Shown: positions 39,166 to 62,580 of the stretch, in pieces
How positions within the stretch are numbered: position 1 is the stretch's first letter
Layout: every line of letters begins with the position of its first letter
Assembly (NCBI GenBank): GCA_041659685.1
Contig: JBAZXV010000004.1
Span: forward strand, 70,355 to 134,354
Length of the DNA: 64,000 bases
Source: Parcubacteria group bacterium
Lineage (GTDB): Bacteria > Patescibacteriota > Minisyncoccia > Moranbacterales > UBA11712
Direction of reading: 5' to 3'
Program-made: the position numbers and the translations under genes
The notes under the pieces: generated by a model
What the model saw: the letters and a program-made list of their open reading frames with translations, nothing else
The model's database searches: none
What the model was told of the DNA's origin: nothing

Positions 39166-39178
39166 TTTAAGGTCGCTG

Positions 39179-39727
39179 TCAGACGGCTGATTTCGGCACC
39201 TCAGTCAGTCGGACCAATTGCTTGACAAAATCAACCTCATAAACCTGCCCCTCCGCAGACTTTAATTCCTTAATGAGTCCGGCATCCTTGAGGAGGTGAT
39301 TCGTGAATTCGCCACCGCCGAAGACAAGCAGCACTCGGGCAAGCTTAGAATCCGCAATTTTCAGCAACTCCCATAAATGAATCCAGGGGCTGAAGCATGT
39401 GGATTTGGTCAGTCCCAGGTACTCATTTCCCTGAACAAAGTCGCCCGAGGCGAGAATGCGGTCTTTGCTGTTCTTCAGGTTTGCGTCGGGAGCGCCAAGG
39501 AAGAGGGACGCCGTTCTGGTGATTCCCCCGGTGGTTCCGTAAAGATGCTCCTGGAAAAATTTGTAGACGGACAGGAATCTTTGACCGGTCCCATGGGCGA
39601 TGTGCACAAATTTAGTGCCGATGATGATGCGAAGCGGCACCAGTATCTCCCCAAGACGCTTCATGCCCTCTTCCGTCAAACCCGGGTCACCCTTCTCATA
39701 AAATCTGTCGGGGTGGGTGATAACCAA
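39179..39727 (-). CDS. Hypothetical protein; divergent histidine-phosphatase-fold-like paralogue of the 48180 gene
   Basis: LTEEGMKRLGEIL and VLLVFGGGEFTNHLL align with LSESGKKQAKELGK and VAIVAHQAPQLALDVLL of the 48180-48728 protein. The canonical RHG motif is absent. Confidence 0.3.
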   Translation of the reverse strand: MVITHPDRFYEKGDPGLTEEGMKRLGEILVPLRIIIGTKFVHIAHGTGQRFLSVYKFFQEHLYGTTGGITRTASLFLGAPDANLKNSKDRILASGDFVQGNEYLGLTKSTCFSPWIHLWELLKIADSKLARVLLVFGGGEFTNHLLKDAGLIKELKSAEGQVYEVDFVKQLVRLTEVPKSAV

Positions 39728-39883
39728 AACTAGCGGCAGTCCACGTTCTTTATATGATTTCCTTCAAAACTTGTTTCCTCCTTAAATTTACTAAAATATT
39801 GAAAAAGGTGCACTTTCGGGCACGATTGCCCTAAGCTTTATATTTTATCATATTTAAGATGATATGTCAATGACAACGTAATG

Positions 39884-39912
39884 TTGATTTATTCGCTTGA
39901 AAATAGTATATT
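39884..39912 (+). promoter_or_regulatory. Consensus promoter TTGATT-N17-TATATT (family member 2)
   Basis: TTGATTtattcgcttgaaaatagTATATTTTA; ~100 nt upstream of the 40011 gene. Confidence 0.5.
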
Positions 39913-40010
39913 TTAAATAGATGCAGGACGAGGTTGAATCTATGCCGAAGAAGTATTGCATGGTAATATGAGATTAAGTAAGATTCTTTTAATTTATTAA
40001 CAAAAAAACA

Positions 40011-40661
40011 ATGGAGGAAAAACAAAAAGGCCAATCCGGGCAAAAACCGGCTGAGCAAACTCCGGCAGGGCAACAGCCCCAAAAGAGCAGTAGCAGCAAC
40101 GTGATAGTAATCGTCATAGTGGTTATTGTCGTTTTTGGAATTGTAGCGCTTGCCGGCGGCTATTTCGTAGTGCGCAGCTTTAAAGCGAAGGTGTCCCAAA
40201 AGATCGGAGAAAATGTTATGGAAAAAATGATTGAAAAAGGCACGGGCCAAAAAGCAGACGTAAGCTCTGACGGAAAATCAGTCAGTGTTGAAACCGACTC
40301 GGGAACATTTTCCGCTTCCGATGAGGGCACCATCAAATTGCCGTCCGATTTTCCTTCCGATGTGTTTGTTTATGGAGATGCAAAAATAACCTTTGCCACT
40401 TCCACAGTGGCCAATCCGGCGGACGGGACCAAGGCCAGTTACATGATTGGATATATGGTGAATCAAAGCGTGAGCGACGCAGTGAATAAATACAGAAAGG
40501 AGATGGCCAAAAACGGCTGGATAAAGGAAACAGAGGCCGACTACGGAGCAATGATGATAAGCTTCAAAAAAGGCGATAGGGAAGCTTTGGTTACGATTTC
40601 CGAAAATCAGGACGGCCAAAAAGGCACAACGGGAGTTTCCTTGTCTGTTTCGGAAAATTAA
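40011..40661 (+). CDS. Membrane-anchored hypothetical protein (Q/P-rich N-terminus, single TM, extracytoplasmic domain)
   Basis: A hydrophobic stretch (NVIVIVIVVIVVFGIVALAGGYFVV) followed by a Ser/Thr-rich domain. Confidence 0.5.
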   Translation: MEEKQKGQSGQKPAEQTPAGQQPQKSSSSNVIVIVIVVIVVFGIVALAGGYFVVRSFKAKVSQKIGENVMEKMIEKGTGQKADVSSDGKSVSVETDSGTFSASDEGTIKLPSDFPSDVFVYGDAKITFATSTVANPADGTKASYMIGYMVNQSVSDAVNKYRKEMAKNGWIKETEADYGAMMISFKKGDREALVTISENQDGQKGTTGVSLSVSEN

Positions 40662-40744
40662 TTTCTGCCAATTCCAATCCCGCTTTTTAGGGAACAAATA
40701 AAAAATCACAACGAAAGGGCTGGGCAATGCGCCGGCCTTTTTTG

Positions 40745-40773
40745 TTGATTTTTCGGCCTGGAAATAGTATATT
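40745..40773 (+). promoter_or_regulatory. Consensus promoter TTGATT-N17-TATATT (family member 3)
   Basis: TTGATTtttcggcctggaaatagTATATTTTAG. A terminator-like hairpin lies just upstream (~40716-40745). Confidence 0.45.
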
Positions 40774-41053
40774 TTAGGTATAAATACGTATTTTGTTACG
40801 TAGCGCCGCGAAGCATAATTCAGCATTTTCCCACGGCCGTGTAATTTTGCTAAATTGTAAAACATCAAGTTAAAAGCTGTTTTCTGCTCGGTATTGGACG
40901 CTGACGGGAAACGCGTCCAAATCGTCCCCGGCAAATCCGTGGCGGAGGTTGAAGGGAGGATGTCTTAGGTTCCTTATTCACAAAAAAAATTCCTCCAATC
41001 CAGTTGTCTGGATAACTGGATAATCCGCTAAAATCCCGCCGGTAATAATCAAT

Positions 41054-41728
41054 GTGCAAACAATTATGAAAACATATCTCAAAGATTTTGAAAAAATGGC
41101 GAAGAGGGAGATTGCGTATATTCCTCTCGGCACTTTGGAATGGCACGGGAATCATCTGCCGATTGAAACGGATTATCTCGTCGCGGTGAAATTATGCGAG
41201 GGATTGGCAAAGAAGAAACCCGGTTATATTCTTCCGCCGATATATCTCGGAACGGATAAGCATAAATTTGTCAAAGGGCAAAAGTTTGTCGGCATGGATC
41301 GGCATCTTGGGAAAAAACTGCCCGGCAATTTATATTATCTAGAGCCAGCCCTTTTTGAAAAAATGCTGACGGGGCTCGTGAAAAATCTCATTGTTCACGG
41401 ATTCAAGAGAATATACGGCATCGCAGCCCACACCGGTGGCGGACAAATGGCGGCGCTCGCCAGAGTCGCGAAGAAGATTCCAGAGCTCAAAATCATAAAT
41501 CCTTGGGAAAATATTAGCATCGATATGCAGCACGCTGAAGAAAACGAAACTTCTGTTTTTTGGGCCTGCTATCCCGAAGAGGAAAAAATAAGCCGAAAAA
41601 TGAAAATTCCTCTCTCGGACGATTGTTTCCGATTTTACGGCCGCGATGTGCGGAGGAGAGCGTCGTTAAAGCTAGGAAAAAAAATGCTAAACGAAGCGTT
41701 GAGAGATTGTTTGGAGGAAATAAAATAA
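41054..41728 (+). CDS. Creatininase-family amidohydrolase
   Basis: …IAYIPLGTLEWHGNHLPIETD… matches the creatininase-family metal-binding motif. Confidence 0.7.
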   Translation: MQTIMKTYLKDFEKMAKREIAYIPLGTLEWHGNHLPIETDYLVAVKLCEGLAKKKPGYILPPIYLGTDKHKFVKGQKFVGMDRHLGKKLPGNLYYLEPALFEKMLTGLVKNLIVHGFKRIYGIAAHTGGGQMAALARVAKKIPELKIINPWENISIDMQHAEENETSVFWACYPEEEKISRKMKIPLSDDCFRFYGRDVRRRASLKLGKKMLNEALRDCLEEIK

Positions 41729-41746
41729 ATAATTCGGAATTATATA

Positions 41747-42241
41747 ATGTCAAAGCTGAATATCGTTGATGAAGACGACAACGTAATCGGAATAGAAGAT
41801 CGCAAAAAAGCGAAAAAAGAGAGCTTCTATCGCGTTTCGGCCCTTTGGGTCACCAATTCGCGCGGGGAAATTTTGCTCGCTCGCCGGCATCGAAGCAAAA
41901 CGCACGATCCTTTGAAATGGGGTCCGGCGGTTTCGGGGACTGTCGAAGCGGGGGAAAGTTATGAAGAAAATATTTTGAAAGAAGCGGAAGAAGAATTGGG
42001 TCTCAAGAATATCCATCCAAAAATCGGGCCGAAAATAAAAATGGAAGTTGAATATCATTATTTTGTCCAGTGGTTCACTTTGGGGATTGAAAAGGATGCC
42101 AGCGATTTCGAGATACAAGAAGACGAAGTCGTAGAGATTAAATGGTTTCCAAAAAAAGATTTAATTTCTGAATTGCAAAACAGTTCTGAAAACTTCACGC
42201 CGGGATTGCGCGCGGTCAGTAAATTATTTTTAGGGGAATAA
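41747..42241 (+). CDS. NUDIX hydrolase
   Basis: Nudix box GPAVSGTVEAGESYEENILKEAEEELGL. Confidence 0.8.
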   Translation: MSKLNIVDEDDNVIGIEDRKKAKKESFYRVSALWVTNSRGEILLARRHRSKTHDPLKWGPAVSGTVEAGESYEENILKEAEEELGLKNIHPKIGPKIKMEVEYHYFVQWFTLGIEKDASDFEIQEDEVVEIKWFPKKDLISELQNSSENFTPGLRAVSKLFLGE

Positions 42242-42246
42242 ATTTT

Positions 42247-43176
42247 ATGGCCACTATCGAAGATTCCGAAAAATTGAATGCTCGAAAAAAATCGCCCGAT
42301 GAGTTGCATCAGGAAAGAGTGAGATCGCCAAAATCGAGAGAACAAACAGGAAAACCTGAACCGTGGTCTGAGGCGGCGCTTGGAGCGGGAAAAATAACCG
42401 AGTCGCAACTCGAAATATATAATTTTGTCTATGACGAGCATGTAAAAATCAGTTTTCTCTTGCACGGGGACGCCGATCAAAGGCAAATGGACGACCGGGC
42501 GCTTCTCCGGCAGATATATACGCGGGCGGCGAAAAAATTTGGCGTCAGCGAAAAGGAGGCTGAAATGATATTTCTTCGACTTGAAAATTTTCGGGTGGAT
42601 TACCGTCCGCCGGTTCATAATGATTTCAGTCCGGAAGCGATCGAGCGCAATATGCCGAGGTATCTTGGATACTACCGGGAATGCAAAGAAGGTTTGATTA
42701 TCGGAGCGGCAATGAATAGAAACTATGCAGTATCATGGCGTCAGGAGCCATTCCAAGTGGGTTGCACAGCTTTGACGCTTGATGCCGACTTTCCTGACGA
42801 TCAGCCGGTGATTCACTACGGGGCGAATTTCAAGCCGACCAAGGATTGGACCAAGTATCATGAAAAACATTGCGCGGAGAGACACGCTATCGAAAGCGCG
42901 CTTGCGTATGACGTGAAATTGATTATTGCAATTGTAATCGTCTCAAGAGAACACGATAAAGGAGACGATGAAAACAAGCCGTCAGAAGTATTGCATTCAT
43001 GCCTCGCGTGCCGCAGAATGTATCGGGATTTACTGAAACGCGGTCTTTTGCGCGAGGATAGTATGATTTGTTTTGTGAATGATTCAGAAGTTGATGAGGA
43101 AGGCAAGCCGACGAAGATTCAGGAAATGACCGTCAAAGAACTTTTGGACTTATATAAAGACGATCCGGAAGATTAG
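42247..43176 (+). CDS. Protein with a C-terminal cytidine/deoxycytidylate-deaminase-fold zinc-binding domain (HAE…SCxxC) and a ~130-aa uncharacterised N-terminal region
   Basis: …HCAERHAIESA… (H-[AC]-E) and …LHSCLACRRM… (CxxC) are separated by ~45 aa, as in the CDA fold. Confidence 0.55.
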   Translation: MATIEDSEKLNARKKSPDELHQERVRSPKSREQTGKPEPWSEAALGAGKITESQLEIYNFVYDEHVKISFLLHGDADQRQMDDRALLRQIYTRAAKKFGVSEKEAEMIFLRLENFRVDYRPPVHNDFSPEAIERNMPRYLGYYRECKEGLIIGAAMNRNYAVSWRQEPFQVGCTALTLDADFPDDQPVIHYGANFKPTKDWTKYHEKHCAERHAIESALAYDVKLIIAIVIVSREHDKGDDENKPSEVLHSCLACRRMYRDLLKRGLLREDSMICFVNDSEVDEEGKPTKIQEMTVKELLDLYKDDPED

Positions 43177-43256
43177 GCGCGGAAGCAAGTGAAGGTTTTT
43201 AGGAATCGTAATGTTAGATAGAAAAGATTAAAGCCCCATCCATTCAGACGGGGCTT

Positions 43257-44447
43257 TTATTTACTTCCTTTCCTTGTAGCCGCAAAAGCAAAGCCTGCGA
43301 CAAGAAGCAGAAAAATGCCATTAGTACTCAGTGCCATAGAGCAACCGAAATTACTGGCCAAGCTTCCCATGGCAAAATGTCCCAGGGCCGTTCCTCCGTT
43401 TGTGGCCGCGATGAGTATTCCCGAAACCCTGCCTCGCATTTCCTGTCCGACTATTATTTGAATCAATATTTTTGCCGTCAGGGAACTGATTGCGAATCCC
43501 GCCCCGGACAAAAACAAGAGCCCGAAGCCGCTAATCAAACTGGGAACCAGCATGGGTAACAGGAAAAGAGAGATTCCGGCAAAAAAAGAACCGCCGGCGA
43601 TAAGGCACGGACTTAATTCTTTTTTAAGGACCAAAAAGGAGCCGACTCCAGACCCCAATCCCACGAAAGCAAAGAGCCATCCAAGCGTGCCGGGACCCGC
43701 GTTAAGCAGATCAACGGAAAAATTCGGCAGGATCGGCCGATAGGCAAATCCCGCTACAGCGATTAAAGCAGACAAAATCAGGTAAAGCCGGGTTTTTGGT
43801 TCGGTGGCCGAATATTTCATTCCGGACCAAAACATTTCAAACGGATTTGCGACCAAGGATCTTCGGCTTCTTTTCGCGATAATCATCGGCAAGGTGGCAA
43901 TAACTGCCAGAAAGGAGACGCCGTTGATCACAAATATCCAGCCGATGCCCGTAAAAGTTAATAAGAATCCGGCTATACCGGGTCCGATTACCTTTGCCAT
44001 CTGGCCAATGATGTTTGATATCGTCATTGCTGACTTGATTCGGCAGTTTCCGACTATTTCCGGAATAAATGCCATTCTGGCGGGTCTGTCAATAGCACTG
44101 GCGACTCCCAGAAAAAAAGCCAAAATGACAATGATCGGCAACGATGCTTTTTCTGTGATTACCAAAAATCCGAGCAGAAAAGCCTGGATCATTTGGGCTG
44201 ATTGGGTAATATACAAAATGTTCTTTTTCTTGAATTTATCCGCGATTATTCCCCCTAAACAAACCAGAAATGCGCTTGTTATCAGGGGGAGGCCGGATAC
44301 GATTCCCACCCAGAAAGATGAATGGGTTATCTTGAGAACCAGCCAGGTTAAGGCAACATATTGCAGCCATGATCCCGTGAAGGAAATGGCTTGGCCGGTC
44401 AGAAAAAGACGAAAATTCCGCGTGGCTATTTTTTTGTCCAAGAACAT
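43257..44447 (-). CDS. MFS transporter
   Basis: 396 aa, 12 predicted TM, MFS-like loop motifs. Confidence 0.75.
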   Translation of the reverse strand: MFLDKKIATRNFRLFLTGQAISFTGSWLQYVALTWLVLKITHSSFWVGIVSGLPLITSAFLVCLGGIIADKFKKKNILYITQSAQMIQAFLLGFLVITEKASLPIIVILAFFLGVASAIDRPARMAFIPEIVGNCRIKSAMTISNIIGQMAKVIGPGIAGFLLTFTGIGWIFVINGVSFLAVIATLPMIIAKRSRRSLVANPFEMFWSGMKYSATEPKTRLYLILSALIAVAGFAYRPILPNFSVDLLNAGPGTLGWLFAFVGLGSGVGSFLVLKKELSPCLIAGGSFFAGISLFLLPMLVPSLISGFGLLFLSGAGFAISSLTAKILIQIIVGQEMRGRVSGILIAATNGGTALGHFAMGSLASNFGCSMALSTNGIFLLLVAGFAFAATRKGSK

Positions 44448-44517
44448 TTCCTCCTTATGATATTTCCGGCATTTTTACCGGATACTATATGCTATATTAC
44501 AGTCCGTCTTGCGTCAA

Positions 44518-44546
44518 TTCTGCCGCATTGATTTTTCTCATTGAAA
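44518..44546 (+). promoter_or_regulatory. Consensus promoter TTGATT-N17-TATATT (family member 4), upstream of the csaA-like gene
   Basis: TTGATTtttctcattgaaaatagTATATTTAAC. Confidence 0.5.
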
Positions 44547-44566
44547 ATAGTATATTTAACTTATAA

Positions 44567-44914
44567 ATGCACAAAACTATGGCAACTATTGAAGATTTTC
44601 ACAAGATGGACATTAGGGTTGGGAAAATCATTGAAGTCGAGGATTTTCCGGAAGCCCGAAAACCGATGTATAAGATCACGATCGATTTCGGCTCGGAGAT
44701 TGGCGTAAAAAAATCGTCGGTCCAGCTGGTTACGCTCTATAAAAAAGAAGAGCTCATGGGCAAAGTTATTTTGGGCGTCGTTAATTTCCCGCCCCGCCAA
44801 ATTGGTCCGTTTCTTTCCGAAGTCCTCACCCTCGGCGTCCCGGACAAGGAAGACAATTGCGTCCTCATTGTCCCCGAAAAAGACACGGCGGAAATCGGCG
44901 GGAGGTTATTTTAA
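44567..44914 (+). CDS. tRNA-binding protein (CsaA/Trbp111-like OB-fold domain)
   Basis: …DIRVGKIIEVEDFPEARKPMYKITIDFGSE…; the start may be the ATG at 44579. Confidence 0.75.
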   Translation: MHKTMATIEDFHKMDIRVGKIIEVEDFPEARKPMYKITIDFGSEIGVKKSSVQLVTLYKKEELMGKVILGVVNFPPRQIGPFLSEVLTLGVPDKEDNCVLIVPEKDTAEIGGRLF

Positions 44915-44918
44915 GTGA

Positions 44919-45482
44919 TTGAACAAACTCATGCAAAGATTAAGTATTGTTAACGAAAATGACGAAGTGGTCGGAGAGGAGACTCGCGAAAATATCCACA
45001 AAAAAGGGCTGCTTCACAGGGAAGTCCATGTCTGGGTCTATAATAACAAGGAAGAGCTGCTTTTTCAGGAAAGGTCTATGATTAAGGATACCTATCCGGG
45101 GCTGTTTGATGTTTCTGTCGGCAGTCATGTTGAGATCGGTGAGGAATACGAAAGGACTGCATTAAGGGAGTTGGAGGAGGAAACTGGAATAAAGGCGAGG
45201 AAAAATGATCTGACTTTTATTGCGAGCATAAGAGGAAACATTATTGATGAACTCACTGGAATGAAAAATAACTCAATAAAAAAGATATATGCTTTTCGTT
45301 TTGACGGGAACGTGGAAGATTTAAAGGTTGAAGACGGAGAAGCGGTGAGTCTAAGATTTTTTCCAATAGAAAGGATTTTGAATTTATCGGAAGAGGAGAG
45401 CAAAAAATTTACACCTGAAATGATGAGCGAAGAATTTAGGGATGTTTTCAGAAAAATAAAGTTATTGGCGCTGAAAAAATAA
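44919..45482 (+). CDS. NUDIX hydrolase
   Basis: Nudix box …SVGSHVEIGEEYERTALRELEEETGI…. Confidence 0.8.
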   Translation: MNKLMQRLSIVNENDEVVGEETRENIHKKGLLHREVHVWVYNNKEELLFQERSMIKDTYPGLFDVSVGSHVEIGEEYERTALRELEEETGIKARKNDLTFIASIRGNIIDELTGMKNNSIKKIYAFRFDGNVEDLKVEDGEAVSLRFFPIERILNLSEEESKKFTPEMMSEEFRDVFRKIKLLALKK

Positions 45483-45486
45483 AGTT

Positions 45487-46083
45487 ATGAATTTTTCCAA
45501 GGAAATATACCAAAAAATTTGGGATGCGGCGTTGCCATATCAAGATAAAAGGGATGACGCGGGACATGCGGAGATTGTTACAAATTTCGCTCTGAAACTT
45601 TGCAAAATAGAAGACGTGAATGAGGAAATTGTTATTCCCGCGGCTATTTTGCATGACATCGGTTGGAGCCAGCTATCTGACAAAGAAAGATTCGTTATAT
45701 TTTATAAAAAAGCCACAAAAGAAGAGATGCTGCATATCCGCCTTCGTCACCAAGAAGAAGGAGTGAAATTGGCTAAAAAAATATTGGAAGATGTTGGTTA
45801 TACTTCGGGATCAATTCGGAAAATAGTTGAAATAATTTCCGAGCATGATACGCGTAAAGTATTTTTGTCCAAGGAAGATGGAATCATGAGAGACGCGGAC
45901 AAATTATGGTGTTTTAGCAAATTGGGTCTTGGCGCTGACCATAGGAGAAGGAAAGAAGGATTTTCTTCCTATTTCAAACAATTGAAGGAAAATATTGATA
46001 ACAGATCATTTTTCTTTTCCGAATCAGCAAGGAAAATAGCACGGAAGGAAATTGAAATAAATAAAAAAGGACTTGGTTTTTAA
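45487..46083 (+). CDS. HD-domain phosphohydrolase
   Basis: …ILHDIGW…EHD…; HD motifs. Confidence 0.7.
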   Translation: MNFSKEIYQKIWDAALPYQDKRDDAGHAEIVTNFALKLCKIEDVNEEIVIPAAILHDIGWSQLSDKERFVIFYKKATKEEMLHIRLRHQEEGVKLAKKILEDVGYTSGSIRKIVEIISEHDTRKVFLSKEDGIMRDADKLWCFSKLGLGADHRRRKEGFSSYFKQLKENIDNRSFFFSESARKIARKEIEINKKGLGF

Positions 46084-46095
46084 ATTTATGGCAAT

Positions 46096-46179
46096 ATGAG
46101 TGAAAAAATATTTTTCCAAAATTCAAACGGCGTGAAACTTTATTGCAATCTTGAAAAATTCTGGACTGAATGTGCATGA
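46096..46179 (+). pseudogene. 27-codon fragment duplicating the N-terminus of the alpha/beta-hydrolase gene at 47383
   Basis: MSEKIFFQNSNGVKLYCN… against MHQKIFFQNSNGLKLCGV…. The ~30-nt core TTCCAAAATTCAAACGGC(G/C)TGAAACTT is near-identical. Confidence 0.55.
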
Positions 46180-46249
46180 TCATGAGACTATTAGTTTTGG
46201 AAGAGTAATTTTCGCACAATAAGTTGATAATTAAAATATTTGTTGTTTT

Positions 46250-47380
46250 ATGGTGCATATTGAACGTCCAACATTTCTAGCGGATCAGGCAGAGATTGAG
46301 AATGAAAGATTGGCAGACGGACAGCAAGTGAAAGTTGTCGAACTCTCAAGTGTCAGTCAAGTAACTGCAGAAAAAGTTCCGAACGGTTATGTTCTCAAGC
46401 AATACAAATGGCCGGAATTTGATATGTCCTGGACGGATATTTTTGAGGGCGACGATCTGATTAATCCGTATACCCATCGAACGGCGAAAGCATACGAAAG
46501 ATTGAAAAAATCCGGTCCGCAAGAAGATGAACCCCTAACTAAAGATATAATCAAAGCTGTTCAGGAGCAGTATGAAAAAGAAGATTCCATATCATCCTCC
46601 AGGGATAACGAAAAATTTGAAAAAGAGCAGCCGGATCGACACGCCTATCTCTTGCAAATGAGAGAAAAATTACAAAACCCGGAATATGTGGCAAAGGCGG
46701 TCGAAGCCTGGAGATTTCCAAATATAGCCAAAAGGTTGCATAAAAGGAATAAAGGGTTGCAACAATTTTTTAGCTCTCACGGATTGCCAGATCTGATTGT
46801 TCCGACAAATATTGTTGTGGGAGCGGAAAGGAACGAGATTGATGAAAGCAGAGACGGACCGAAACATTTATATGAAATCCAGCCCAGAATTAATTCATTG
46901 GCTTTGCCTGAGTCAGTATTGAATGGAGCTTACGTTGTCTATCACGGCGCAAACATCGGCATGCTTTATTTTAGGGCTTTAAGCCCGGATCAATTGAAGA
47001 AGCAAATTGAAATTCAGAGCTCAGAACTCTCGGAATATCTCAGCAGAAGTTTGTCTTTGGAACAACTTAATAAAATAAGAAATGAAATTAGCAATCTTAT
47101 AAATGCTGCCAAACAACTTCCGCTTGAGATCGGAAAAATTCCTTATGATATTTTGATGCTAAAAAATATTCTAATTACTAAAAACGGGCTAAGGATTATC
47201 GACACGAATCGGTTGATTGCTTTTCCGGAAGGGGATATTGTGGATTGGATGCAAGAAACGGTAGTGCCCGGTGATAATATTTCTGATTTTGATTTATCTC
47301 AAACCAAAATGGCTTGTTTGCAAAATTATCAGCGAATGGTGGATTTTTGGGAGCATATAAAAATAAAGATCGAAAATTGA
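46250..47380 (+). CDS. Hypothetical protein with a protein-kinase-like (APH/Kdo-kinase-like) C-terminal catalytic-loop pattern
   Basis: …YDILMLKNILITKNGLRIIDTN… resembles the D-x4-N catalytic loop plus a downstream Asp. Flanked by duplicated hydrolase-gene sequence. Confidence 0.35.
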   Translation: MVHIERPTFLADQAEIENERLADGQQVKVVELSSVSQVTAEKVPNGYVLKQYKWPEFDMSWTDIFEGDDLINPYTHRTAKAYERLKKSGPQEDEPLTKDIIKAVQEQYEKEDSISSSRDNEKFEKEQPDRHAYLLQMREKLQNPEYVAKAVEAWRFPNIAKRLHKRNKGLQQFFSSHGLPDLIVPTNIVVGAERNEIDESRDGPKHLYEIQPRINSLALPESVLNGAYVVYHGANIGMLYFRALSPDQLKKQIEIQSSELSEYLSRSLSLEQLNKIRNEISNLINAAKQLPLEIGKIPYDILMLKNILITKNGLRIIDTNRLIAFPEGDIVDWMQETVVPGDNISDFDLSQTKMACLQNYQRMVDFWEHIKIKIEN

Positions 47381-47382
47381 TG

Positions 47383-48141
47383 CATCAAAAAATTTTCTTC
47401 CAAAATTCAAACGGCCTGAAACTTTGCGGGGTTTTGTCGAATCCGGCGGATGATGTCTCAAGGCCGATTATGATCCTTTGCCACGGGTTCACGAGGAGCA
47501 AGGACACTAGAACCTACCCGATCCTTGAAAAACTCATCAATGAAAAAAATATAGCGACTTTCCGCTTTGATTTTTTCGGACATGGGGAAAGCGAAGGAAA
47601 ATTTGAGGATATCACAATTTCAGAAGGTGTTGATGATATTTTGCGTGCGATTGATTATCTCAAAAGTCTTGGATACTCAAAAATGGGTTTGTTTGGGAGC
47701 AGTTTTGGCGGAGCGGCGAGCATAATCGCGGCTTCAAAGACCAAGGACCTTTCGCTTCTAGCCTTGAAATCGCCGGTCGCGGATTATATGGAAAGAGAAA
47801 TTGGAAAAGGAAATAAAAAGGAGTTGGAAGAATGGAAGAATAAGGGGTATAAAGATTATTTCGACAGTAAGGGGAACAAATTCAAATTGAACTATACATT
47901 TTTCGAGGATTTTAAGAATAACGACGGCTATAAAGCGGGTAAAAATATTTCGATTCCGACATTGATCGTCCACGGTGACGCGGACACATCGGTTCCAATC
48001 GAACAAAGCGATAAACTGGTTGAAATTCTCCCAAACGGTAAGCTGGAAATAATTCCCGGAGCCGACCATCATTATTCCAATCCGGAACATTATCAGAAAC
48101 ATTTGGATTTGATTGTGGATTTTATTTCTAAAAATATCTAA
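47383..48141 (+). CDS. Alpha/beta hydrolase (dienelactone-hydrolase / S9-like)
   Basis: …ILCHGF…, nucleophile elbow GLFGSSFGG, catalytic …VHGDADTSVP… and …GADHHY…. Its ATG overlaps the upstream TGA stop. Confidence 0.75.
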   Translation, partial: HQKIFFQNSNGLKLCGVLSNPADDVSRPIMILCHGFTRSKDTRTYPILEKLINEKNIATFRFDFFGHGESEGKFEDITISEGVDDILRAIDYLKSLGYSKMGLFGSSFGGAASIIAASKTKDLSLLALKSPVADYMEREIGKGNKKELEEWKNKGYKDYFDSKGNKFKLNYTFFEDFKNNDGYKAGKNISIPTLIVHGDADTSVPIEQSDKLVEILPNGKLEIIPGADHHYSNPEHYQKHLDLIVDFISKNI

Positions 48142-48179
48142 TCCTCCAAAATCCCGCCGGGATAATTTAAATAAAACTT

Positions 48180-48728
48180 ATGCCAATCAAAATAACATAT
48201 TTTGTCCATGGAACTACCCTGGATAATGAGCAAGATTTAGCAACTGGATGGCAGCCGGGAGAATTATCCGAATCAGGGAAAAAACAAGCGAAAGAACTCG
48301 GTAAAATTGTTGCTGACAAAAAATTCGATGTCGTATTTTGTTCAGACCTGAAGCGGTCCATTGATTCGGCTGAATTGGGATTTGGCGATCGATATAAAAT
48401 TATAGAAGATAAGAGATTAAGGGAGGCAAACTATGGTGATTTTACGGGAAAGCCGGCCGAGATTTTCAAAAAAAAGCCGATCGAATATATCGAAAAAAAA
48501 TTTCCAAACGGAGAAAGCTATCAGGACGTGGAAAAAAGAATGAATGATTTTCTGAAATTTTTGAAAGGAAACTTCGATGGAAAACATGTCGCGATTGTGG
48601 CACATCAGGCTCCGCAGCTGGCGCTGGATGTACTGCTTAAAGGCAAAACTTGGAATGAAGCGATTGTCGAGGACTGGCGAAATACGAAAAATTGGCAACC
48701 TGGATGGGAATATTTTATTAAAAACTAG
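48180..48728 (+). CDS. Histidine-phosphatase (phosphoglycerate-mutase-like) family protein, non-canonical
   Basis: …ITYFVHGTT…, …VAIVAHQ…; the canonical Arg is replaced. Confidence 0.6.
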   Translation: MPIKITYFVHGTTLDNEQDLATGWQPGELSESGKKQAKELGKIVADKKFDVVFCSDLKRSIDSAELGFGDRYKIIEDKRLREANYGDFTGKPAEIFKKKPIEYIEKKFPNGESYQDVEKRMNDFLKFLKGNFDGKHVAIVAHQAPQLALDVLLKGKTWNEAIVEDWRNTKNWQPGWEYFIKN

Positions 48729-49003
48729 ACTCAATCAGTCTCAAAATCCCGCCTTTTTAATATATGGAAATTTCAAAAGAAACATCAAAACTGAATATTG
48801 ATGGCCGGAAAGAAAAAACGCCCGAGCCGGATTTTGTCGGCGTTTATAAGAAGAGACTAGCTATGGCAAAACCCGTTGCCGAGCCGGAAAGGGAGCTTAC
48901 CGCTTTTGACTACAGGGACACAGGACTGAAATCCATTGAAAAAAGAATTCCCGTGGTTGTGTTCGAGTGGGGATAAGAAAAGGATCCCGAATATAACCTT
49001 TGG

Positions 49004-49558
49004 ATGTTTTCCGAAAACGATCCCGCGAAGAGATTGAGCCACGAAATAATTCGCGATGATCTGAGCAGTCAAATCGGGCAGAATAATGAGAATTTAGGGC
49101 TGGGGCCGTTTTCGGCTTATATCCTTATCGGTTCAAAAGGCGGAGATGATACGGAAAAAACAACGTATCTCGCGGTGCACGAAAGTTTTGCCCGCATAAT
49201 CGAAATGGAAAACCAGGAACCGGCCAATAATGCCTTCATAAAGAAATGGCAGGACTTTCTTGAAAAATATAATGTTGATTCGATTATCGGGGAATTCAAG
49301 TCCTCACTTCCAGTGGGAAAGCGATCTAAGCGCGGTAATCCGGAAGAGGTTTTGAATGTCGATATTGTGGGGCGAATGATGGAAAACACGGAACTCATGA
49401 AAATCGCAAAAGAAGCGCATTTGACGAACTACGGGGTGATGAGGCTTTTTCTCGAATATTATGCCGCCAAAAAAATTAATCGCAATTATGATTGCCGGGC
49501 AAACGCTGCGAGGCTGGCAGAAGAGACGAAAGAGCATCCTTATGAAAGACAGGATTAG
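49004..49558 (+). CDS. Hypothetical protein
   Basis: 184-aa ORF in a co-directional gene run; no recognisable family. Confidence 0.45.
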   Translation: MFSENDPAKRLSHEIIRDDLSSQIGQNNENLGLGPFSAYILIGSKGGDDTEKTTYLAVHESFARIIEMENQEPANNAFIKKWQDFLEKYNVDSIIGEFKSSLPVGKRSKRGNPEEVLNVDIVGRMMENTELMKIAKEAHLTNYGVMRLFLEYYAAKKINRNYDCRANAARLAEETKEHPYERQD

Positions 49559-49588
49559 GATAATGTTAATTTTAAAAATTAATAATCC

Positions 49589-49870
49589 ATGCTGCCATTA
49601 ATTATAAACTACAGCGCCCTGATAGCCTTTTCTTTTTTTACAATTGATATTGTTGTCCAAATATTCCATATCCACAAAATAAAATCCTCAAGAGATATTT
49701 CCATAAAGGGATCTGTAATCAGGGCTGTTGCCGCTTATATTCTGTTGGTTAAATATTATTCCGTTAATGATATTTTTTTGGAGATCGGGCAAACGGTGTT
49801 TACCCTTTCGCTCACCGCATACTTATTGATGATGATTTATTACAGGAAGGGCGCAGACCAACCGGAATAA
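49589..49870 (+). CDS. Small hypothetical membrane protein (2-3 TM)
   Basis: 93 aa, hydrophobic. Confidence 0.4.
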   Translation: MLPLIINYSALIAFSFFTIDIVVQIFHIHKIKSSRDISIKGSVIRAVAAYILLVKYYSVNDIFLEIGQTVFTLSLTAYLLMMIYYRKGADQPE

Positions 49871-49934
49871 ATTATTTTCTTGTCCTATCTCCTTCAAATT
49901 CCGCTGAAATATTAATTTTTTAAAGGATAATTAA

Positions 49935-50360
49935 ATGTCCGAAATGCATGGAGTTGAAAACTCAAGTGGAAATGAAATGAAACTGTATAGTTTTGAAGAA
50001 TTTTGCGAGCGGCAGGAAAATTTCTATACCATTTTTTTGCCGGAAATAAATTCTAAGATACTTGGAGAATTTCAAAAAGATAATCCGGAGCTGGCGGAGA
50101 AACTGATTGTTGAAATGGGCGTGGCTATCAAGGCGAATCTTGCCAAAGAAAATCCATTCAGAGTTAGCAAAATAATTGCTGAAGAATATCGAAAGAAAGG
50201 AGAACAGATCAGCGACGAAAAACTTATTAAGGAAGTGTCTTTACGCGAAGTATTTGGGCAAAAGAAGGCAATAGAGCCGTTTTTAGCGGATTTATACGAA
50301 GCCTATCTGATTCTTAGAAAAAAATATTCCAATAGGGAATTGAAATTGAAATATTGGTAA
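49935..50360 (+). CDS. Hypothetical protein
   Basis: 141-aa ORF; helical and charged. Confidence 0.45.
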   Translation: MSEMHGVENSSGNEMKLYSFEEFCERQENFYTIFLPEINSKILGEFQKDNPELAEKLIVEMGVAIKANLAKENPFRVSKIIAEEYRKKGEQISDEKLIKEVSLREVFGQKKAIEPFLADLYEAYLILRKKYSNRELKLKYW

Positions 50361-50434
50361 ATCCGCCTGCCTGATAAAATTTATTCTTCAAAAAATTCCC
50401 GCAAATAAGCCATGAAATTATATATTTTAACGCT

Positions 50435-51115
50435 ATGGAAAAAGAATCTCTAACCAGAAATCACTTATCCGCCACAAAAGAAAAATGGGAGGAAAAGCAT
50501 GGAAGCGGAGAATGGGCGGGCGGAAAGTGGGAAATAAAAAGAGTAATTGATTTTTTCGACCGATACAAAAAAGAGCTTGGCCGCGAGGTGCTGGATATCG
50601 GTTCCGGCTGCGGGCGCAATGCGGTTCCCTTGGCGAGAAGGGGACACGATGTTACCTGTCTAGAACTCACTGAGGAGGGGCTCAAAAAAACCAGAGTGAA
50701 ACTTGAGGCCGAGCAGCTTAAGGCGAATTTAGTTCAGGGGGATCAGAGCCGTCTGCCTTTTCAGAATGAAAAATTCGATTCAGTCGTCAGCGTCCAGTCT
50801 TTCCAATTCAATGTGACAAAGTGGGACGCCGAGAAATCTTTTGCGGAAGCGGCCAGAGTGTTGAAGCCGGACGGCATTTTTTTCTTGAGAGTCCGGTCGG
50901 AAGATTTTTTTGACGGCAACCACAAAATTTTCGATGAAGCGGGCAGTTTGGAGTCCAGAGGATATTCTCTGGCTGAAATCATGCATCTTGCGGCGGCCAA
51001 TAATATGGAAATTATCGAAGAACCGGTGGATTCATATAAGGATGACAAGGACGGAAATATTATTAGAAAAGGGCAGTGGAATATCGTGATGAGGAAAAAG
51101 AAAGTAAACCATTAG
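50435..51115 (+). CDS. Class I SAM-dependent methyltransferase
   Basis: Motif I VLDIGSGCGRNAVPLA; motif post-I/II …VTCLELTEEG…. Confidence 0.75.
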   Translation: MEKESLTRNHLSATKEKWEEKHGSGEWAGGKWEIKRVIDFFDRYKKELGREVLDIGSGCGRNAVPLARRGHDVTCLELTEEGLKKTRVKLEAEQLKANLVQGDQSRLPFQNEKFDSVVSVQSFQFNVTKWDAEKSFAEAARVLKPDGIFFLRVRSEDFFDGNHKIFDEAGSLESRGYSLAEIMHLAAANNMEIIEEPVDSYKDDKDGNIIRKGQWNIVMRKKKVNH

Positions 51116-51166
51116 AATTCCAATGGAATATTAAAATAAAATCAATAATTATTATTAAGCAAAAGT

Positions 51167-51922
51167 ATGCTGCTTGAAAACAAAACAGCGATTGTAACCG
51201 GTGCGGCGAAAGGTATCGGAAAAGGAATTGCTCTGGCTCTCGCGAAAGAGGGATCGAACGTCGTCGTTTCGGACATTGACCAAAAAGAATCAGAAACGGT
51301 GACTGAAGAAATCAAAAAAATAGGGCCGAAAGCACTCGCTGTCCAGTGCGATGTTTCCAAAAAAGAAGAAGTGGAAAATCTTTTCTCGAAAACTATTCAG
51401 GAATTCGGCCACGCCGATATTCTCGTCAACAACGCCGGAATTTATCCTTTTAAACCCTTTGTCGAGATGCAAGAATCCGATTGGGACAAGGTAATGAACG
51501 TGAATTTGAAAAGCATCTTTCTTTGCTCGAAGGAAGCCGCCAAAGTTCTGCCGGAAGGCGGGCGGATTGTGAATATTTCCTCCGTCGCCGCTTTTGTGGG
51601 ATTTGAAGGGCTAGTGCATTATTGCGCTACGAAAGGAGCCGTTAATGCGATGATCCGGGCGCTGGCGCTTGAACTTGCGCCGAAAAAAATCACCGTGAAC
51701 GCCGTGGCGCCGGGCGCTATCGACACTCCGGGCGCCAGTCAACCGGACCAGCCGAGAACTGCCGCCGAGGAAACCAGGAAACAAACCATTGCTATGATTC
51801 CTCTTTCCCGAATGGGTCAGCCCGAGGACATTGCCAATGCCGTTGTTTTTCTGGCTTCGGAAAAATCCGGTTATATTACCGGCCAAACGATCATTGTCGA
51901 CGGGGGATGGACTTTAAGATAA
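51167..51922 (+). CDS. SDR-family oxidoreductase (FabG-like)
   Basis: TGAAKGIGKGIA (TGxxxGxG), NNAG, and a Y-x3-K catalytic pair (…YCATKGA…). Confidence 0.85.
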   Translation: MLLENKTAIVTGAAKGIGKGIALALAKEGSNVVVSDIDQKESETVTEEIKKIGPKALAVQCDVSKKEEVENLFSKTIQEFGHADILVNNAGIYPFKPFVEMQESDWDKVMNVNLKSIFLCSKEAAKVLPEGGRIVNISSVAAFVGFEGLVHYCATKGAVNAMIRALALELAPKKITVNAVAPGAIDTPGASQPDQPRTAAEETRKQTIAMIPLSRMGQPEDIANAVVFLASEKSGYITGQTIIVDGGWTLR

Positions 51923-51953
51923 GAAGTTCGTAATTATTCATAACGGAAAACTT

Positions 51954-52712
51954 ATGGAAATCAGCCTCAAAAACAAAAATATTCTCGTGACGGGCGCCAG
52001 CCGGGGAATTGGGAAGGCAATTGCGGAAGAAACGGGAAAATCCGGAGCGCGAGTGGCGGTTCACTATGGAAAAAATAAGGCGGAAGCTGAAAAAATAGCC
52101 AAGGAAATCGGGAATAATTCACAAGCTTTCGGAGCAGACCTTGAAAAACCGGAGGAATGCAAAAATCTTTTCGAAAAAGTTGTAAAGGATTTTAGGCGCA
52201 TTGACGTTCTTGTGAATAATGCTGGTGTCGCAATATTATCTCCGCTCGACGGCGACAAATGGGTTGAGGCTTGGGATCGGACGATGGCAATCAATCTGCG
52301 ATCCGTTGGAATTCTTGCGCGTCTGGCTATTCAGCATTTTCGCAAAATAGGCGGAGGAAAGATTATTAATATAGCATCCCGCGCCGCATATCGGGGGGAT
52401 ACGGCGGAATACTTAGCCTACGCCGCTTCCAAGGGCGGAGTGGTTTCGCTCAGCAAATCCATCGCCAGGGATTTTGGAAAAGACAATATTGTGTGTTTTG
52501 CGCTGGCGCCGGGCTGGGTGCGGACTGACATGGCAAAGGAAGCTATGGATCAGGATGAATATGGCGAAGAGTTCGTTATGCAGGGGATCGCGCTCAATCG
52601 TCTCACTGAGCCGCGTGACATTGCGCCCATTGCCGCGCTTCTCGCGAGCGGGCTTGCGGATCACGCCACCGGAACGACGATTGACATCAACGCGGCGAGC
52701 TATGTCCACTAA
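51954..52712 (+). CDS. SDR-family oxidoreductase
   Basis: TGASRGIGKAIA, NNAG, …YAASKGG…. Confidence 0.85.
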   Translation: MEISLKNKNILVTGASRGIGKAIAEETGKSGARVAVHYGKNKAEAEKIAKEIGNNSQAFGADLEKPEECKNLFEKVVKDFRRIDVLVNNAGVAILSPLDGDKWVEAWDRTMAINLRSVGILARLAIQHFRKIGGGKIINIASRAAYRGDTAEYLAYAASKGGVVSLSKSIARDFGKDNIVCFALAPGWVRTDMAKEAMDQDEYGEEFVMQGIALNRLTEPRDIAPIAALLASGLADHATGTTIDINAASYVH

Positions 52713-52793
52713 TATTCTCCGAAATATCATTGCGACGAATACTTTCTCAACTCGGAAATACAGTCTTGTTATTGGCTACGGGGTAATGCTGTA

Positions 52794-52831
52794 TATTTCT
52801 TATCAGTAAACTAGTTTACTGATAAGAAATA
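52794..52831. promoter_or_regulatory. 38-bp near-perfect palindrome (core TATCAGTAAACTAGTTTACTGATA), copy 1, immediately upstream of the YerC-like gene
   Basis: TATTTCTTATCAGTAAACTAGTTTACTGATAAGAAATA is exactly self-complementary over 38 nt. Confidence 0.6.
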
Positions 52832-52856
52832 AAAAGTAATATTTAAGAGAAATATT

Positions 52857-53291
52857 ATGGCCGGTAAAGTGAAATACAATCAACTGACTGATTTTCAGAA
52901 AAAGAAATATCTGGGAGAATTTTATGATATGATTTCGCTTCTTGGGAGCAGGGAAGAAGTAAAAAAGTTTTTCAAGGATCTTCTGACCTTGAGTGAGGTC
53001 GTCATGATCTCTCGGAGAATTCAGATTGCGAAAATGCTTCTGGAAGGGAAAAGTTTCGAGGATATAAAAACAAAAATGAAAGTCGGGAGCAATACGATCA
53101 GTCATGTCGAAAGATGGCTCAACAACGGATTTGGGGGATATAAAGAGATAATTAAAAGGCACGAGAAAGATAGGGCGATGAAAAATGAGGAAATCGAAAA
53201 AAGGATGTCGGCAACTCCGTTTTCCTGGAAAGCGATCAAAAGAAAATACCCATTGCATTTTCTACTACTCAACGCTCTTGATAATAAATAA
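52857..53291 (+). CDS. TrpR-like / YerC-YecD family DNA-binding protein
   Basis: …LTLSEVVMISRRIQIAKMLLEGKSFEDIKTKMKVGSNTISHVERWL… matches the YerC/YecD (Trp-repressor-like) HTH. Confidence 0.65.
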   Translation: MAGKVKYNQLTDFQKKKYLGEFYDMISLLGSREEVKKFFKDLLTLSEVVMISRRIQIAKMLLEGKSFEDIKTKMKVGSNTISHVERWLNNGFGGYKEIIKRHEKDRAMKNEEIEKRMSATPFSWKAIKRKYPLHFLLLNALDNK

Positions 53292-53294
53292 CAT

Positions 53295-53324
53295 TTTTAT
53301 CAGTAAACTAGTTTACTGATAAAA
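53295..53324. promoter_or_regulatory. 30-bp perfect palindrome, copy 2 of the same core, between the YerC-like gene and the downstream MTase gene
   Basis: TTTTATCAGTAAACTAGTTTACTGATAAAA; the 24-bp core is identical to copy 1. Confidence 0.6.
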
Positions 53325-53354
53325 GAAAATATAAGTGATAACCTGCTTGCTAAA

Positions 53355-54176
53355 ATGTCGCGAGAGATAAAAAACAGGGATTCAGTTAAGAAAAAATATA
53401 TTAAATATTTAAACACCGTGCACGGGGCGAAGAAGTATAATGATTACAAGAAAATTCTCTACGGCCGGCCGGACTCGCTGGTCATTGAGCTTTTCCGGCG
53501 GATCTATCCTAATATTAAAGACCAAAAATCGTTGAAAATTTTGGATGTCGGCGGGGGAGATGGAAAGAGGTTGAAACTCCTATTCGATCTATTGTCAAAA
53601 AAGGGAATTGATGCTTCCGCAACGCTGGTTGAACCTTCGTCTGCTTTTGTCACGGAGCTCAAAAAATCCCTAAAATCCGCGAAAAAATATAATATTAGAG
53701 TTGCGAAAAGAAAATTCGAGGACTATTTTGAAAAAGGCGAGTATGATTTGATTTTATTCATTCACAGCATTTTTACCTTTAAAGGTTCGGTCTATCTCCA
53801 AAAAGCCAAAAAAATGCTGGCGAAAAACGGACTACTTATCGTAATGTCAAACGATCCGAAATCTTTCATTGCGGGGCTGAAAAAAATAACAGATGCGAAA
53901 TTTAGATCTGAGAGAAAAGAAATCGGATCAGTTCTCAGGGATCTGATAAATCATGGGTTTAAGCATAAAATTGAAAAATTCGATACAATTTTTAGAGACG
54001 CCACTAAGGACGATAAGATATCAGCTTCGGGAAAAAAGATTCTCGAATGGATATCTCTTTCGGATTATAAAGATATTAGTGGTAATATAAAAAGCAAGGC
54101 ATTATCATATTTCAAAGGAAAGACTATAAATAATCAGGTGAAGGAAAAAGAGATATTAATAAAATCAAGACAATGA
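53355..54176 (+). CDS. Class I SAM-dependent methyltransferase
   Basis: Motif I ILDVGGGDGKRL. Confidence 0.7.
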   Translation: MSREIKNRDSVKKKYIKYLNTVHGAKKYNDYKKILYGRPDSLVIELFRRIYPNIKDQKSLKILDVGGGDGKRLKLLFDLLSKKGIDASATLVEPSSAFVTELKKSLKSAKKYNIRVAKRKFEDYFEKGEYDLILFIHSIFTFKGSVYLQKAKKMLAKNGLLIVMSNDPKSFIAGLKKITDAKFRSERKEIGSVLRDLINHGFKHKIEKFDTIFRDATKDDKISASGKKILEWISLSDYKDISGNIKSKALSYFKGKTINNQVKEKEILIKSRQ

Positions 54177-54268
54177 TAAAAAAGTCACCTATTCGAATTG
54201 CAATGCTCTTATATGTGCATATATGAGAGTGAAAATATTTTGAGATAAAGAATAATTTTAATATTTTT

Positions 54269-54877
54269 ATGCTTAAAGCCGTTATTTTCGATTTCGACGG
54301 GGTGATTGCGGATACTTTCCAGCTGAATGTCAATATCTCCCGAGAGCAGAAGAAAAAATTTACCCTGAAAGAATTCCGCGATCATCACAACGGCAATGTT
54401 TGGGAAAAGCCGGTTATTCAATATACGAAAAAGAACTTGAAATATGGCTTTGCTGAATATCATTCTCGTCTGGATGGAAGCCTCCTGTTTCCCTTAAAAG
54501 ATCAGATCAAAAAACTCGCAAAAAAACACAAGCTGTTTATCATTTCCAGCAGTCCGGAGAGAAGCATTGAAAAATTTTTGAAGCTTGTAAATATTTCAAA
54601 ATACTTTGAAAAAGTTCTGGGATATTACGCGCATCAGTCAAAAGTTGAGAAATTTAAGATGATTTTTGCGAAGTATAAAGTGAAATCCGAAGAATGCGTC
54701 TTTGTGACTGATTCCTTGGGAGACTTGCGGGAAGCGAAAAAAGTTGAAGTGCCGACGATTGCCGTCACCTGGGGGTATCACGGAAAAACGAGGCTCAAAA
54801 AGGGATCGCCGGACATCATGATCCACAATTTCAAAGATCTTACGGGCGCCGTAAACAAAATAAGAATAACCTTATAA
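54269..54877 (+). CDS. HAD-superfamily hydrolase (β-phosphoglucomutase/phosphatase-like)
   Basis: Motif I VIFDFDGVIADT; …VTDSLGDL… motif IV. Confidence 0.75.
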   Translation: MLKAVIFDFDGVIADTFQLNVNISREQKKKFTLKEFRDHHNGNVWEKPVIQYTKKNLKYGFAEYHSRLDGSLLFPLKDQIKKLAKKHKLFIISSSPERSIEKFLKLVNISKYFEKVLGYYAHQSKVEKFKMIFAKYKVKSEECVFVTDSLGDLREAKKVEVPTIAVTWGYHGKTRLKKGSPDIMIHNFKDLTGAVNKIRITL

Positions 54878-54901
54878 TATTCGTGCCAGCAAACTAGTCC
54901 A

Positions 54902-62576: not shown

Positions 62577-62580
62577 TTTT

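Follow-up and report, generated by a model that had tools for sequence, protein, structure and literature searches.

The window analysed here is a stretch of 64,000 nucleotides (nt) from a metagenome-assembled genome (MAG) of the Parcubacteria group (Patescibacteria/candidate phyla radiation), and the subject of this analysis is a gene within it that encodes a kinase-like protein of 376 amino acids (aa) and lies between two copies of the start of an alpha/beta-hydrolase gene. All of the features involved are on the + strand. The intact hydrolase gene, which encodes 253 aa and matches the Pfam families Hydrolase_4, Abhydrolase_1 and Peptidase_S9, extends from 47380 to 48141, and its translation contains the motifs GSSFG, HGDAD and GADHH. 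The kinase-like gene, which belongs to a rare family and is called kinase-like from its predicted fold, occupies 46250-47380, and its TGA stop codon (47378-47380) has one base in common with the hydrolase ATG (47380-47382), in the arrangement TGATG. An earlier note on this DNA had recognized both the hydrolase gene and this stop/start overlap, but had placed the start of the hydrolase at 47383, whereas the ATG is actually at 47380. Further upstream, 12 nt after the stop codon of an HD-domain phosphohydrolase gene (45487-46083; Pfam PF01966, E 1.1e-10), there is a hydrolase 5' remnant of 46 nt, or 15 codons (46096-46141), which constitutes a left junction scar. The remnant forms the first part of a 27-codon open reading frame (ORF; 46096-46179) that runs into unrelated sequence up to a TGA, and it is separated from the start of the kinase-like gene by a unique spacer of 108 nt (46142-46249) with no blastn match in any fetched locus. 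The segment between the remnant and the intact hydrolase is therefore about 1.24 kb in length (46142-47379), comprising this 108-nt leader and the 376-aa gene. We consider the 27-codon ORF to be a dead remnant that marks the left junction at which this lineage acquired the kinase-like gene, an acquisition that would have occurred by recombination and not by transposition, and we put the probability of this reading at roughly 0.55.

The repeat itself is direct and imperfect. The remnant and the resident copy, which is the genuine hydrolase 5' end (47380-47425), both open with an ATG and are identical at 40 of 46 positions (87%), with a core that consists of TTCCAAAATTCAAACGGC, then G or C, then TGAAACTTT; the corresponding peptides, MSEKIFFQNSNGVKL and MHQKIFFQNSNGLKL, have 12 of 15 residues in common. 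When the first 60 nt of the hydrolase were aligned locally with both strands of the window, the best score outside the gene was 63, at 46102, and the runner-up was 28, which excludes a chance match and bears out the observation, made in the earlier note, that the short ORF repeats the hydrolase 5' end. Two further candidates were rejected. The sequence at 46195-46212 (18 nt, 83%), which might be taken for a third, inverted hydrolase start, was judged to be an AT-rich chance match; by hand alignment it reaches 16/20 and does not extend, and the hairpin that it might form is no better than that of shuffled sequence. A hydrolase-motif match at 63294-63329 is likewise due to chance and falls in the gene for ribosomal protein L1, which is part of a NusG-L11-L1 ribosomal protein cluster at 62031-63834 (translations read by eye).

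To locate the end of the similarity, the remnant was compared with four hydrolase genes, namely the resident one and the three orthologues with readable DNA (L002, from Moraniibacteriota, L090 and L091). Over nt 1-46, the remnant agrees with these four sequences at 37-40 of the 46 positions (37-39 for the three orthologues), and over nt 47-75 it drops to 8-11 of 29, which is the background level, whereas the true hydrolase genes keep 20-27 of 29 among themselves. Because the true orthologues stay alike past nt 46 and the remnant does not, the similarity ends, as judged from these alignments, at a sharp breakpoint at approximately nt 46 and not by gradual decay; allowing for a 3-nt indel could move the breakpoint downstream by as many as six bases. 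The HD gene was once followed, after 12 nt, by a hydrolase start; of this only the first 46 nt are left, and unrelated DNA with the intact kinase-like gene adjoins them.

The six differences between remnant and resident copy are informative to different degrees. Two are at synonymous sites in codons 5 and 6, where the remnant has ATA TTT, as in the relatives, and the resident gene has ATT TTC; one (GTG for CTG) is private to the remnant, and the remaining three are in codons that are variable everywhere. Overall, the remnant is about as distant from the resident copy (40/46) as are orthologues from other genomes (35-39/46), and so a recent duplication of the resident start seems an unlikely origin for it, although 46 nt make for a thin argument. 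The target duplication proposed in the earlier note is difficult to reconcile with a repeat that is 87% identical, as diverged as orthologues and relative-like at two synonymous sites.

Homologues of the hydrolase are abundant (1752 were found), and the closest are 76-89% identical to it. When the gene (47380-48141) is compared with these closest alleles (P0004-P0014) in blocks of 25 residues, the identity is uneven: P0008 is 100% identical over one block (with FTRSKDTRTYPILEKLINEKNIA) and 48% identical in a later one, and P0004 is 100% identical in four blocks and 75-92% identical in most others, the short first block excepted. This pattern suggests mosaic recombination among the hydrolase alleles of the clade. 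At 55-62% identity (loci L005-L084), the 253-aa hydrolase is encoded in DPANN archaea (Woesearchaeota, Nanoarchaeota and Aenigmatarchaeota) and in Aminicenantes, and other bacterial MAGs with the same hydrolase are labelled Saccharibacteria, Gammaproteobacteria and Eubacteriales; this spread over archaea and bacteria implies wide inter-domain transfer.

What precedes the hydrolase is different from one relative to the next. Several of the relatives at 76-89% hydrolase identity have a recognizable syntenic backbone (Creatininase, NUDIX, tRNA_bind, hydrolase), in which the gene next to the hydrolase varies. The contigs with the two closest hydrolases (P0004 and P0005, both in JGI 3300075153 and read from gene tables) have, respectively, a DUF6602 gene of 297 aa (hydrolase identity 89%) and a 186-aa gene with no Pfam match (83%). 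In L002-L004 (80%) the slot contains a gene for a 274-aa membrane protein, which overlaps the hydrolase as TAATG, in L091 (76%) a 183-aa gene that overlaps it as TGATG, and in L090 (81%) a NUDIX gene together with a 71-aa gene on the opposite strand, while the window has NUDIX, HD, the stub and the kinase-like gene. In P0008 (81% identity; 274 aa, on a JGI contig of 1560 bp), the protein as called begins with 21 additional residues, MRFDCPGQTIGGRRREVVLKL, which correspond to the 3' end of tRNA_bind read out of frame (the equivalent frame of the window, 44842-44922, reads LRPHCPRKRHGGNRREVILSD), and the gene call is therefore too long. By reading-frame arithmetic, the hydrolase of that genome would begin about 5 nt after tRNA_bind, leaving the slot empty.

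The slot genes with readable DNA (products of 274, 183 and 71 aa) have no similarity to each other or to the 376-aa protein, and none of the three matched a PADLOC defence model. None of the relatives examined has the kinase-like gene at this position. Variation extends to the other side of the hydrolase, where the downstream gene encodes a histidine phosphatase in the window, is of AAA_33 type in L091 and is an unannotated gene of 178 aa in L002, indicating that the gene flux is regional and not confined to one site. Since the upstream position is different in each relative, the kinase-like gene is, on the basis of these comparisons, a lineage-specific addition to a fast-turnover slot. The proposal in the earlier note of an insertion at the hydrolase 5' end is thus borne out in that there is a scar and that the gene is lineage-specific and absent from the position in all relatives examined; a mobile element, however, was not found.

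By sequence, the 376-aa protein is almost without company. It belongs to no Pfam, NCBIfam, PADLOC or PHROG family and has no sequence match in the PDB, and neither it nor any of 31 relatives matches a kinase family at E up to 0.01 in Pfam (Pkinase, APH, RIO1, ABC1 and others), and NCBIfam gave no kinase family either. Among 5.8 billion proteins there are two clusters only, namely the protein itself and one relative (P0002) at 29% identity, and an exhaustive profile search of 1.84 billion representatives gave 51 proteins at E up to 1e-3, including 10 at E up to 1e-30. For ten members of the family, a look-up gave singletons or pairs from small metagenomic contigs, with one of them named (Candidatus Magasanikbacteria). 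No homologue was detected in a viral-contig scan or by tblastn against phages and plasmids. PADLOC gave no match for the family, and for the neighbours in the window it gave only a weak, short NUDIX match to PDC-S07 (E 0.0012). In the sole contig with P0002 (L001), the next gene (1188-1916) encodes a T5orf172/MUG113 (GIY-YIG-like) protein with a homing-endonuclease-associated repeat, which hints that this neighbourhood may be mobile or selfish.

Conservation within the family was read from an alignment of 31 members (A2), in which K50, D300, N306 and D318 are each kept in at least 90% of the members. The motifs are an N-terminal RPxFL, a nearly invariant lysine (VLK50), a helix with AKxLKxR166, LY208-E209-I-Q211-P and, toward the C terminus, IPYD300-x5-N306-L-x-x-T-x-x-G-L-R-I-I-D318-T-N320, so that the conserved residues are K50, R166, Y208, E209, Q211, D300, N306, D318 and N320. 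The window protein keeps every one of these, and its gene is intact. An AlphaFold2 model based on the same alignment has a mean pLDDT of 90.7 and a pTM of 0.89, and its top 50 Foldseek matches in the PDB are all kinases or kinase-like enzymes (best 7cyr, E 0.018, probability 0.89), including MSMEG_1954, ROP5, FGFR2, PKR, PknG, PI4K-II-beta, APH(3'), maltokinase and FN3K. MSMEG_1954 is an ATPase homologous to Rv3197/MABP-1 (PMC8696161). Matches in the viral BFVD library are also mostly protein kinases, with probabilities up to 0.98. These results support a bilobal kinase fold for the predicted structure, but at such modest E values they fall short of proof. In the model, K50 is located in a predicted strand (residues 47-52) and would be the equivalent of the kinase beta-3 lysine. 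A non-significant profile match to StkP (E 0.09) places N306 on the catalytic-loop asparagine and D318 on the aspartate of DFG, with D300 offset by one, and a large helical insert is predicted at about residues 61-176. Taken together, the model and the motifs indicate that the protein is probably a divergent, ATP-dependent, protein-kinase-like phosphotransferase. The kinase-like character noticed earlier from the letters alone thus holds at the level of the predicted fold, and does not extend to membership of any described family.

With respect to mechanism, we infer that the kinase-like gene was acquired, since none of the relatives carries it, an empty slot is possible, and members of its family are few and patchily distributed. 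The incoming DNA would have carried this gene and, after it, either the 5' end of a hydrolase or an entire hydrolase allele. Its hydrolase side would have been anchored by homology, and its other side would have been joined illegitimately inside the resident hydrolase, at about base 46, with the 108-nt spacer presumably coming in together with the kinase-like gene. Such a process would be homology-facilitated illegitimate recombination (HFIR) or, equivalently, Campbell-type integration of a circle through short hydrolase homology, and its outcome would be an intact hydrolase coupled to the new gene by a one-base overlap, plus an orphaned 5' stub. HFIR has been described (PMC3240628), and it has been proposed as the source of orphaned gene pieces in type VI secretion system (T6SS) and Rhs loci (PMC5361080). 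The structure seen here, with its sharp junction at nt 46 and allele-like divergence, is compatible with an HFIR product. A recombination model can account for the allele-like divergence, for the mosaic hydrolase alleles (not formally tested), for a stop/start coupling that was already formed and for the lack of mobile-element genes. We favour recombination over transposition because no transposase or integrase gene was found among the annotated ORFs of 36-56 kb and no convincing terminal inverted repeats around the insert, and because the copies differ at 6 of 46 positions, as would fit two alleles.

Several observations weigh against this account. The allele argument depends on two to three informative sites in 46 nt, and an old duplication followed by drift is another possible source of the divergence. 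The direction of the event is deduced from broader comparisons in place of an exact empty site: the order that the earlier note had expected there, with the HD gene followed directly by the hydrolase, was searched for and found in no genome, and the closest HD homologues (at most 71%) have other neighbours, namely NUDIX and peptidase S66 genes in L092 and an unrelated 186-aa gene in L093. The layout expected of a donor, with a kinase-like gene directly upstream of the hydrolase, occurs in none of about 90 hydrolase loci. From the side of the kinase-like family, the five readable contexts of its members show no adjoining hydrolase (L086 and L087 are too short to include a neighbour), and the neighbours that can be seen (L001, L085/L088 and L089) are the T5orf172/MUG113 gene, a small membrane protein or a PEP-utilising-like enzyme. 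As for the passenger, the kinase-like call is made on a predicted structure with best Foldseek E values of 6e-3 to 2e-2 and TM-scores of 0.43 or less, and no near-invariant acidic residue was seen where the alpha-C glutamate would be expected, the conserved residue in the helix before the hinge being R166.

The main rival is a deletion, which we regard as unlikely. Here the ancestor would have had the order HD, hydrolase A, kinase-like gene, hydrolase B, and hydrolase A would have been lost from base 47 onward, with no insertion into a hydrolase at any stage. A single such event would leave a sharp breakpoint, and a divergence between stub and resident gene that resembles that of orthologues is what would be expected of old paralogues. 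Furthermore, some genomes do carry two hydrolase copies, as an adjacent pair in L014 and as L011 and L068 from one MAG. On the other hand, no relative has a hydrolase on both sides of another gene and none has the kinase-like gene at this locus, and a long-standing non-coding stub should have decayed beyond the 1-4 private changes that are seen in 46 nt.

Insertion of a mobile element or cassette, carrying the kinase-like gene into hydrolase codon 16 and leaving the 46-nt repeat as a target-site duplication or as attL/attR, appears to us quite improbable. Direct repeats do bracket an insert with a single gene (about 1.24 kb), the reading frame of the hydrolase is exactly restored, and relatives vary at the slot. 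However, neither the insert nor the annotated ORFs of 36-56 kb include a transposase or integrase gene, the inverted matches around the insert are AT-rich, at chance level and not convincing as terminal repeats, and blastn found no DNA match to the insert elsewhere in the fetched loci. The homology searches for the protein in viral contigs, phage and plasmid records were negative as well, and the other slot genes of relatives are not flanked by hydrolase stubs. In addition, the two copies are only 87% identical, with the stub matching relatives at sites where the resident gene differs, and a repeat of 46 nt is far above the typical length of a transposon target duplication.

That the 27-codon ORF might instead be a functional leader peptide or upstream ORF, regulating the downstream genes and selected for its likeness to the hydrolase, is very improbable. 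Its ATG is intact, its 27 codons are open, it has the same direction of transcription as the genes that follow, and it ends 70 nt before the next of them, but only its first 15, hydrolase-derived codons are conserved, and the remainder is unrelated read-through. In 83 hydrolase loci from other genomes, a search of each locus with the first 60 nt of its own hydrolase gave no second copy (best score 35, compared with 63 in the window), and hence the remnant is not a conserved leader peptide; conservation of that kind in relatives was what the earlier note had named as fatal to an insertion. The region of the ORF has no Rfam match, and the predicted RNA fold of 46084-46260 is unremarkable in comparison with shuffled sequence (z = -1.44). 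There is one weak promoter-like match, at 46151-46180; the promoter-like and terminator-like matches of the region are not enriched over shuffled sequence. Most likely, then, the 27-codon ORF is not a functional gene.

As an independent view of the locus, the Logan assembly of run SRR18595301 has two contigs that match the window with zero mismatches (L094, window 41487-47101, and L095, window 47083-52141), and both junctions are present between them. The two contigs break within the kinase-like gene and overlap by 19 nt (47083-47101); low coverage, a strain variant or a k-mer that recurs could explain the break. That the stub arose when two strains were wrongly joined in the MAG is therefore hardly credible, despite the MAG source and that break, because the separately assembled contigs reproduce both junctions base for base, the longest exact run common to both repeat copies (18 nt) is shorter than the usual assembly k-mers, and a k-mer chimera would be expected to switch inside the repeat and not to put unrelated sequence after base 46.

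A more far-reaching extension of the recombination reading is that the position upstream of the hydrolase is a recurrent gene-exchange slot in Patescibacteria, with the hydrolase 5' end as a homology anchor for the swapping of upstream genes and the stub as the first physical trace of such a swap. Seven related contigs, this window included, have seven slot states, and three of them have an unrelated upstream gene that shares one base with the hydrolase ATG. We consider this extension improbable. If true, it would mean that an integrase-free, cassette-like exchange mechanism operates in an ultra-small bacterium, and the passenger would be the founding member of a new kinase-like family that is functionally coupled to the hydrolase.

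The genes around the kinase-like gene are all on the + strand, except for that of a major facilitator superfamily (MFS) transporter (43257-44447, - strand). To the left of the latter are genes with Pfam annotations as Creatininase (from 41054) and NUDIX (from 41747), followed by the gene for a 309-aa protein (from 42247). To its right there is a promoter-like motif of 41 nt (44528-44568, + strand; TTGATTTTT...AATAGTATATTT), directly 5' of a tRNA_bind-domain gene (44567-44914; Pfam PF01588, E 7.6e-14), whose true start is probably the ATG at 44579, yielding MATIEDF as in relatives. In relatives this backbone gene precedes the variable slot, and its DNA identity is 84% with L002 and 77% with L091. 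Between it and the HD gene is a NUDIX hydrolase gene (44919-45482; Pfam PF00293, E 4.5e-19), whose homologue in L002 is placed elsewhere, before the Creatininase gene. Directly downstream of the alpha/beta-hydrolase gene is a gene of the histidine-phosphatase family (48180-48728; Pfam PF00300, E 6.9e-29), and after this come several small ORFs, then a methyltransferase gene, two short-chain dehydrogenase/reductase (SDR) genes and a Trp-repressor-like gene. The GC content is 34-45% over the whole of 45.0-48.8 kb, mostly below 41%, and the kinase-like gene is not set apart from these surroundings.

The 41-nt motif occurs in four copies in the window (38108-38148, 39884-39924, 40745-40785 and 44528-44568), the others being 71-80% identical to the reference copy at 40745 (TTGATTTTT ... 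GAAAATAGTATATTTTA). It resembles a promoter consensus specific to this genome, in which TTGATT would be -35-like and TAGTATATT an extended -10-like element. The copy at 44528, if it functions as a promoter, is likely to mark the start of the co-directional gene string that holds the kinase-like gene. No promoter of its own is evident for the kinase-like gene, which would be co-transcribed with the tRNA_bind, NUDIX, HD, hydrolase and histidine-phosphatase genes.

Some other features of the window were noted in passing. The interval 38210-56302 is unusually rich in small-molecule hydrolases and modifying enzymes, with a patatin, the Creatininase, the HD protein, the alpha/beta hydrolase, the histidine phosphatase, two SDRs and several methyltransferases, as well as three NUDIX genes (at 41747, at 44919 and, as a fusion to a methyltransferase, at 54902); it showed no mobile-element genes. 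The Trp-repressor-like gene (52857-53291) is flanked by two copies of a 36-nt sequence (52797-52832 and 53294-53329; 89% identical), one about 25 nt before its start and the other just past its stop, each with a near-perfect palindrome inside (TTATCAGTAAACTAGTTTACTGATAA); they might serve as operators or terminators. RNA genes were detected in the window only within 30619-31720, two for tRNA-Met and one for tRNA-Asp.

With regard to significance, the stub provides a base-level view of a candidate-phyla-radiation genome gaining a gene without mobile-element machinery, in a region that is different in every relative sampled. The scar is a useful but expected detail of genome evolution, produced by a known kind of event, and the passenger appears to add a small new branch to the kinase-like superfamily (about 50 known relatives and no database model), which makes it a candidate for biochemical characterization. 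Neither of them overturns current understanding, and the importance of the scar would be greater if the hydrolase 5' end were a recurrent anchor for swaps of upstream genes in these bacteria.

Three known systems are useful for comparison, the first of which concerns the passenger itself. The structural neighbours of the 376-aa protein in the protein-kinase-like superfamily include the UbiB/ABC1-like MSMEG_1954, Ser/Thr kinases (StkP, PknG and PKR) and small-molecule kinases (APH(3'), FN3K and maltokinase), and the predicted likeness includes the conserved lysine in an N-lobe strand (K50) and the D300-x5-N306 ... D318-T-N pattern, which was matched to the catalytic-loop asparagine and the DFG aspartate. 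It differs in having D-x5-N, with one residue more than the usual D-x4-N, a large helical insert, no alpha-C glutamate that is identified as conserved, and low TM-scores (0.43 or less), and by sequence it lies outside all Pfam and NCBIfam kinase families.

The second comparison is with integrative elements that enter a gene at its end and bring a copy of that end to replace it, as at the att sites of tRNA genes and protein genes. In both cases, the insert lies between imperfect direct repeats that stem from the target gene, and this gene remains whole. Here, however, there is no integrase, the cargo is a single 1.1-kb gene and the repeat is at the 5' end of a protein gene, and no second copy of such an element was found in hydrolase loci, in the fetched loci or in the viral, phage and plasmid searches.

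The third comparison is with the orphans attributed to HFIR, i.e., the 3' regions of Rhs and contact-dependent inhibition (CDI) genes and the immunity genes of T6SS (PMC5361080, PMC3240628). The piece left behind in the window is the 5' stub of a housekeeping-type hydrolase and not a 3' toxin tip or an immunity gene, it is single and not part of an array, and HFIR is here an inferred origin. In other respects the two are alike, for there are no mobile-element genes in either, a truncated and non-functional piece of the resident gene is displaced across the insert, and the foreign DNA adjoins a homologous anchor gene, which in the window is the intact hydrolase.

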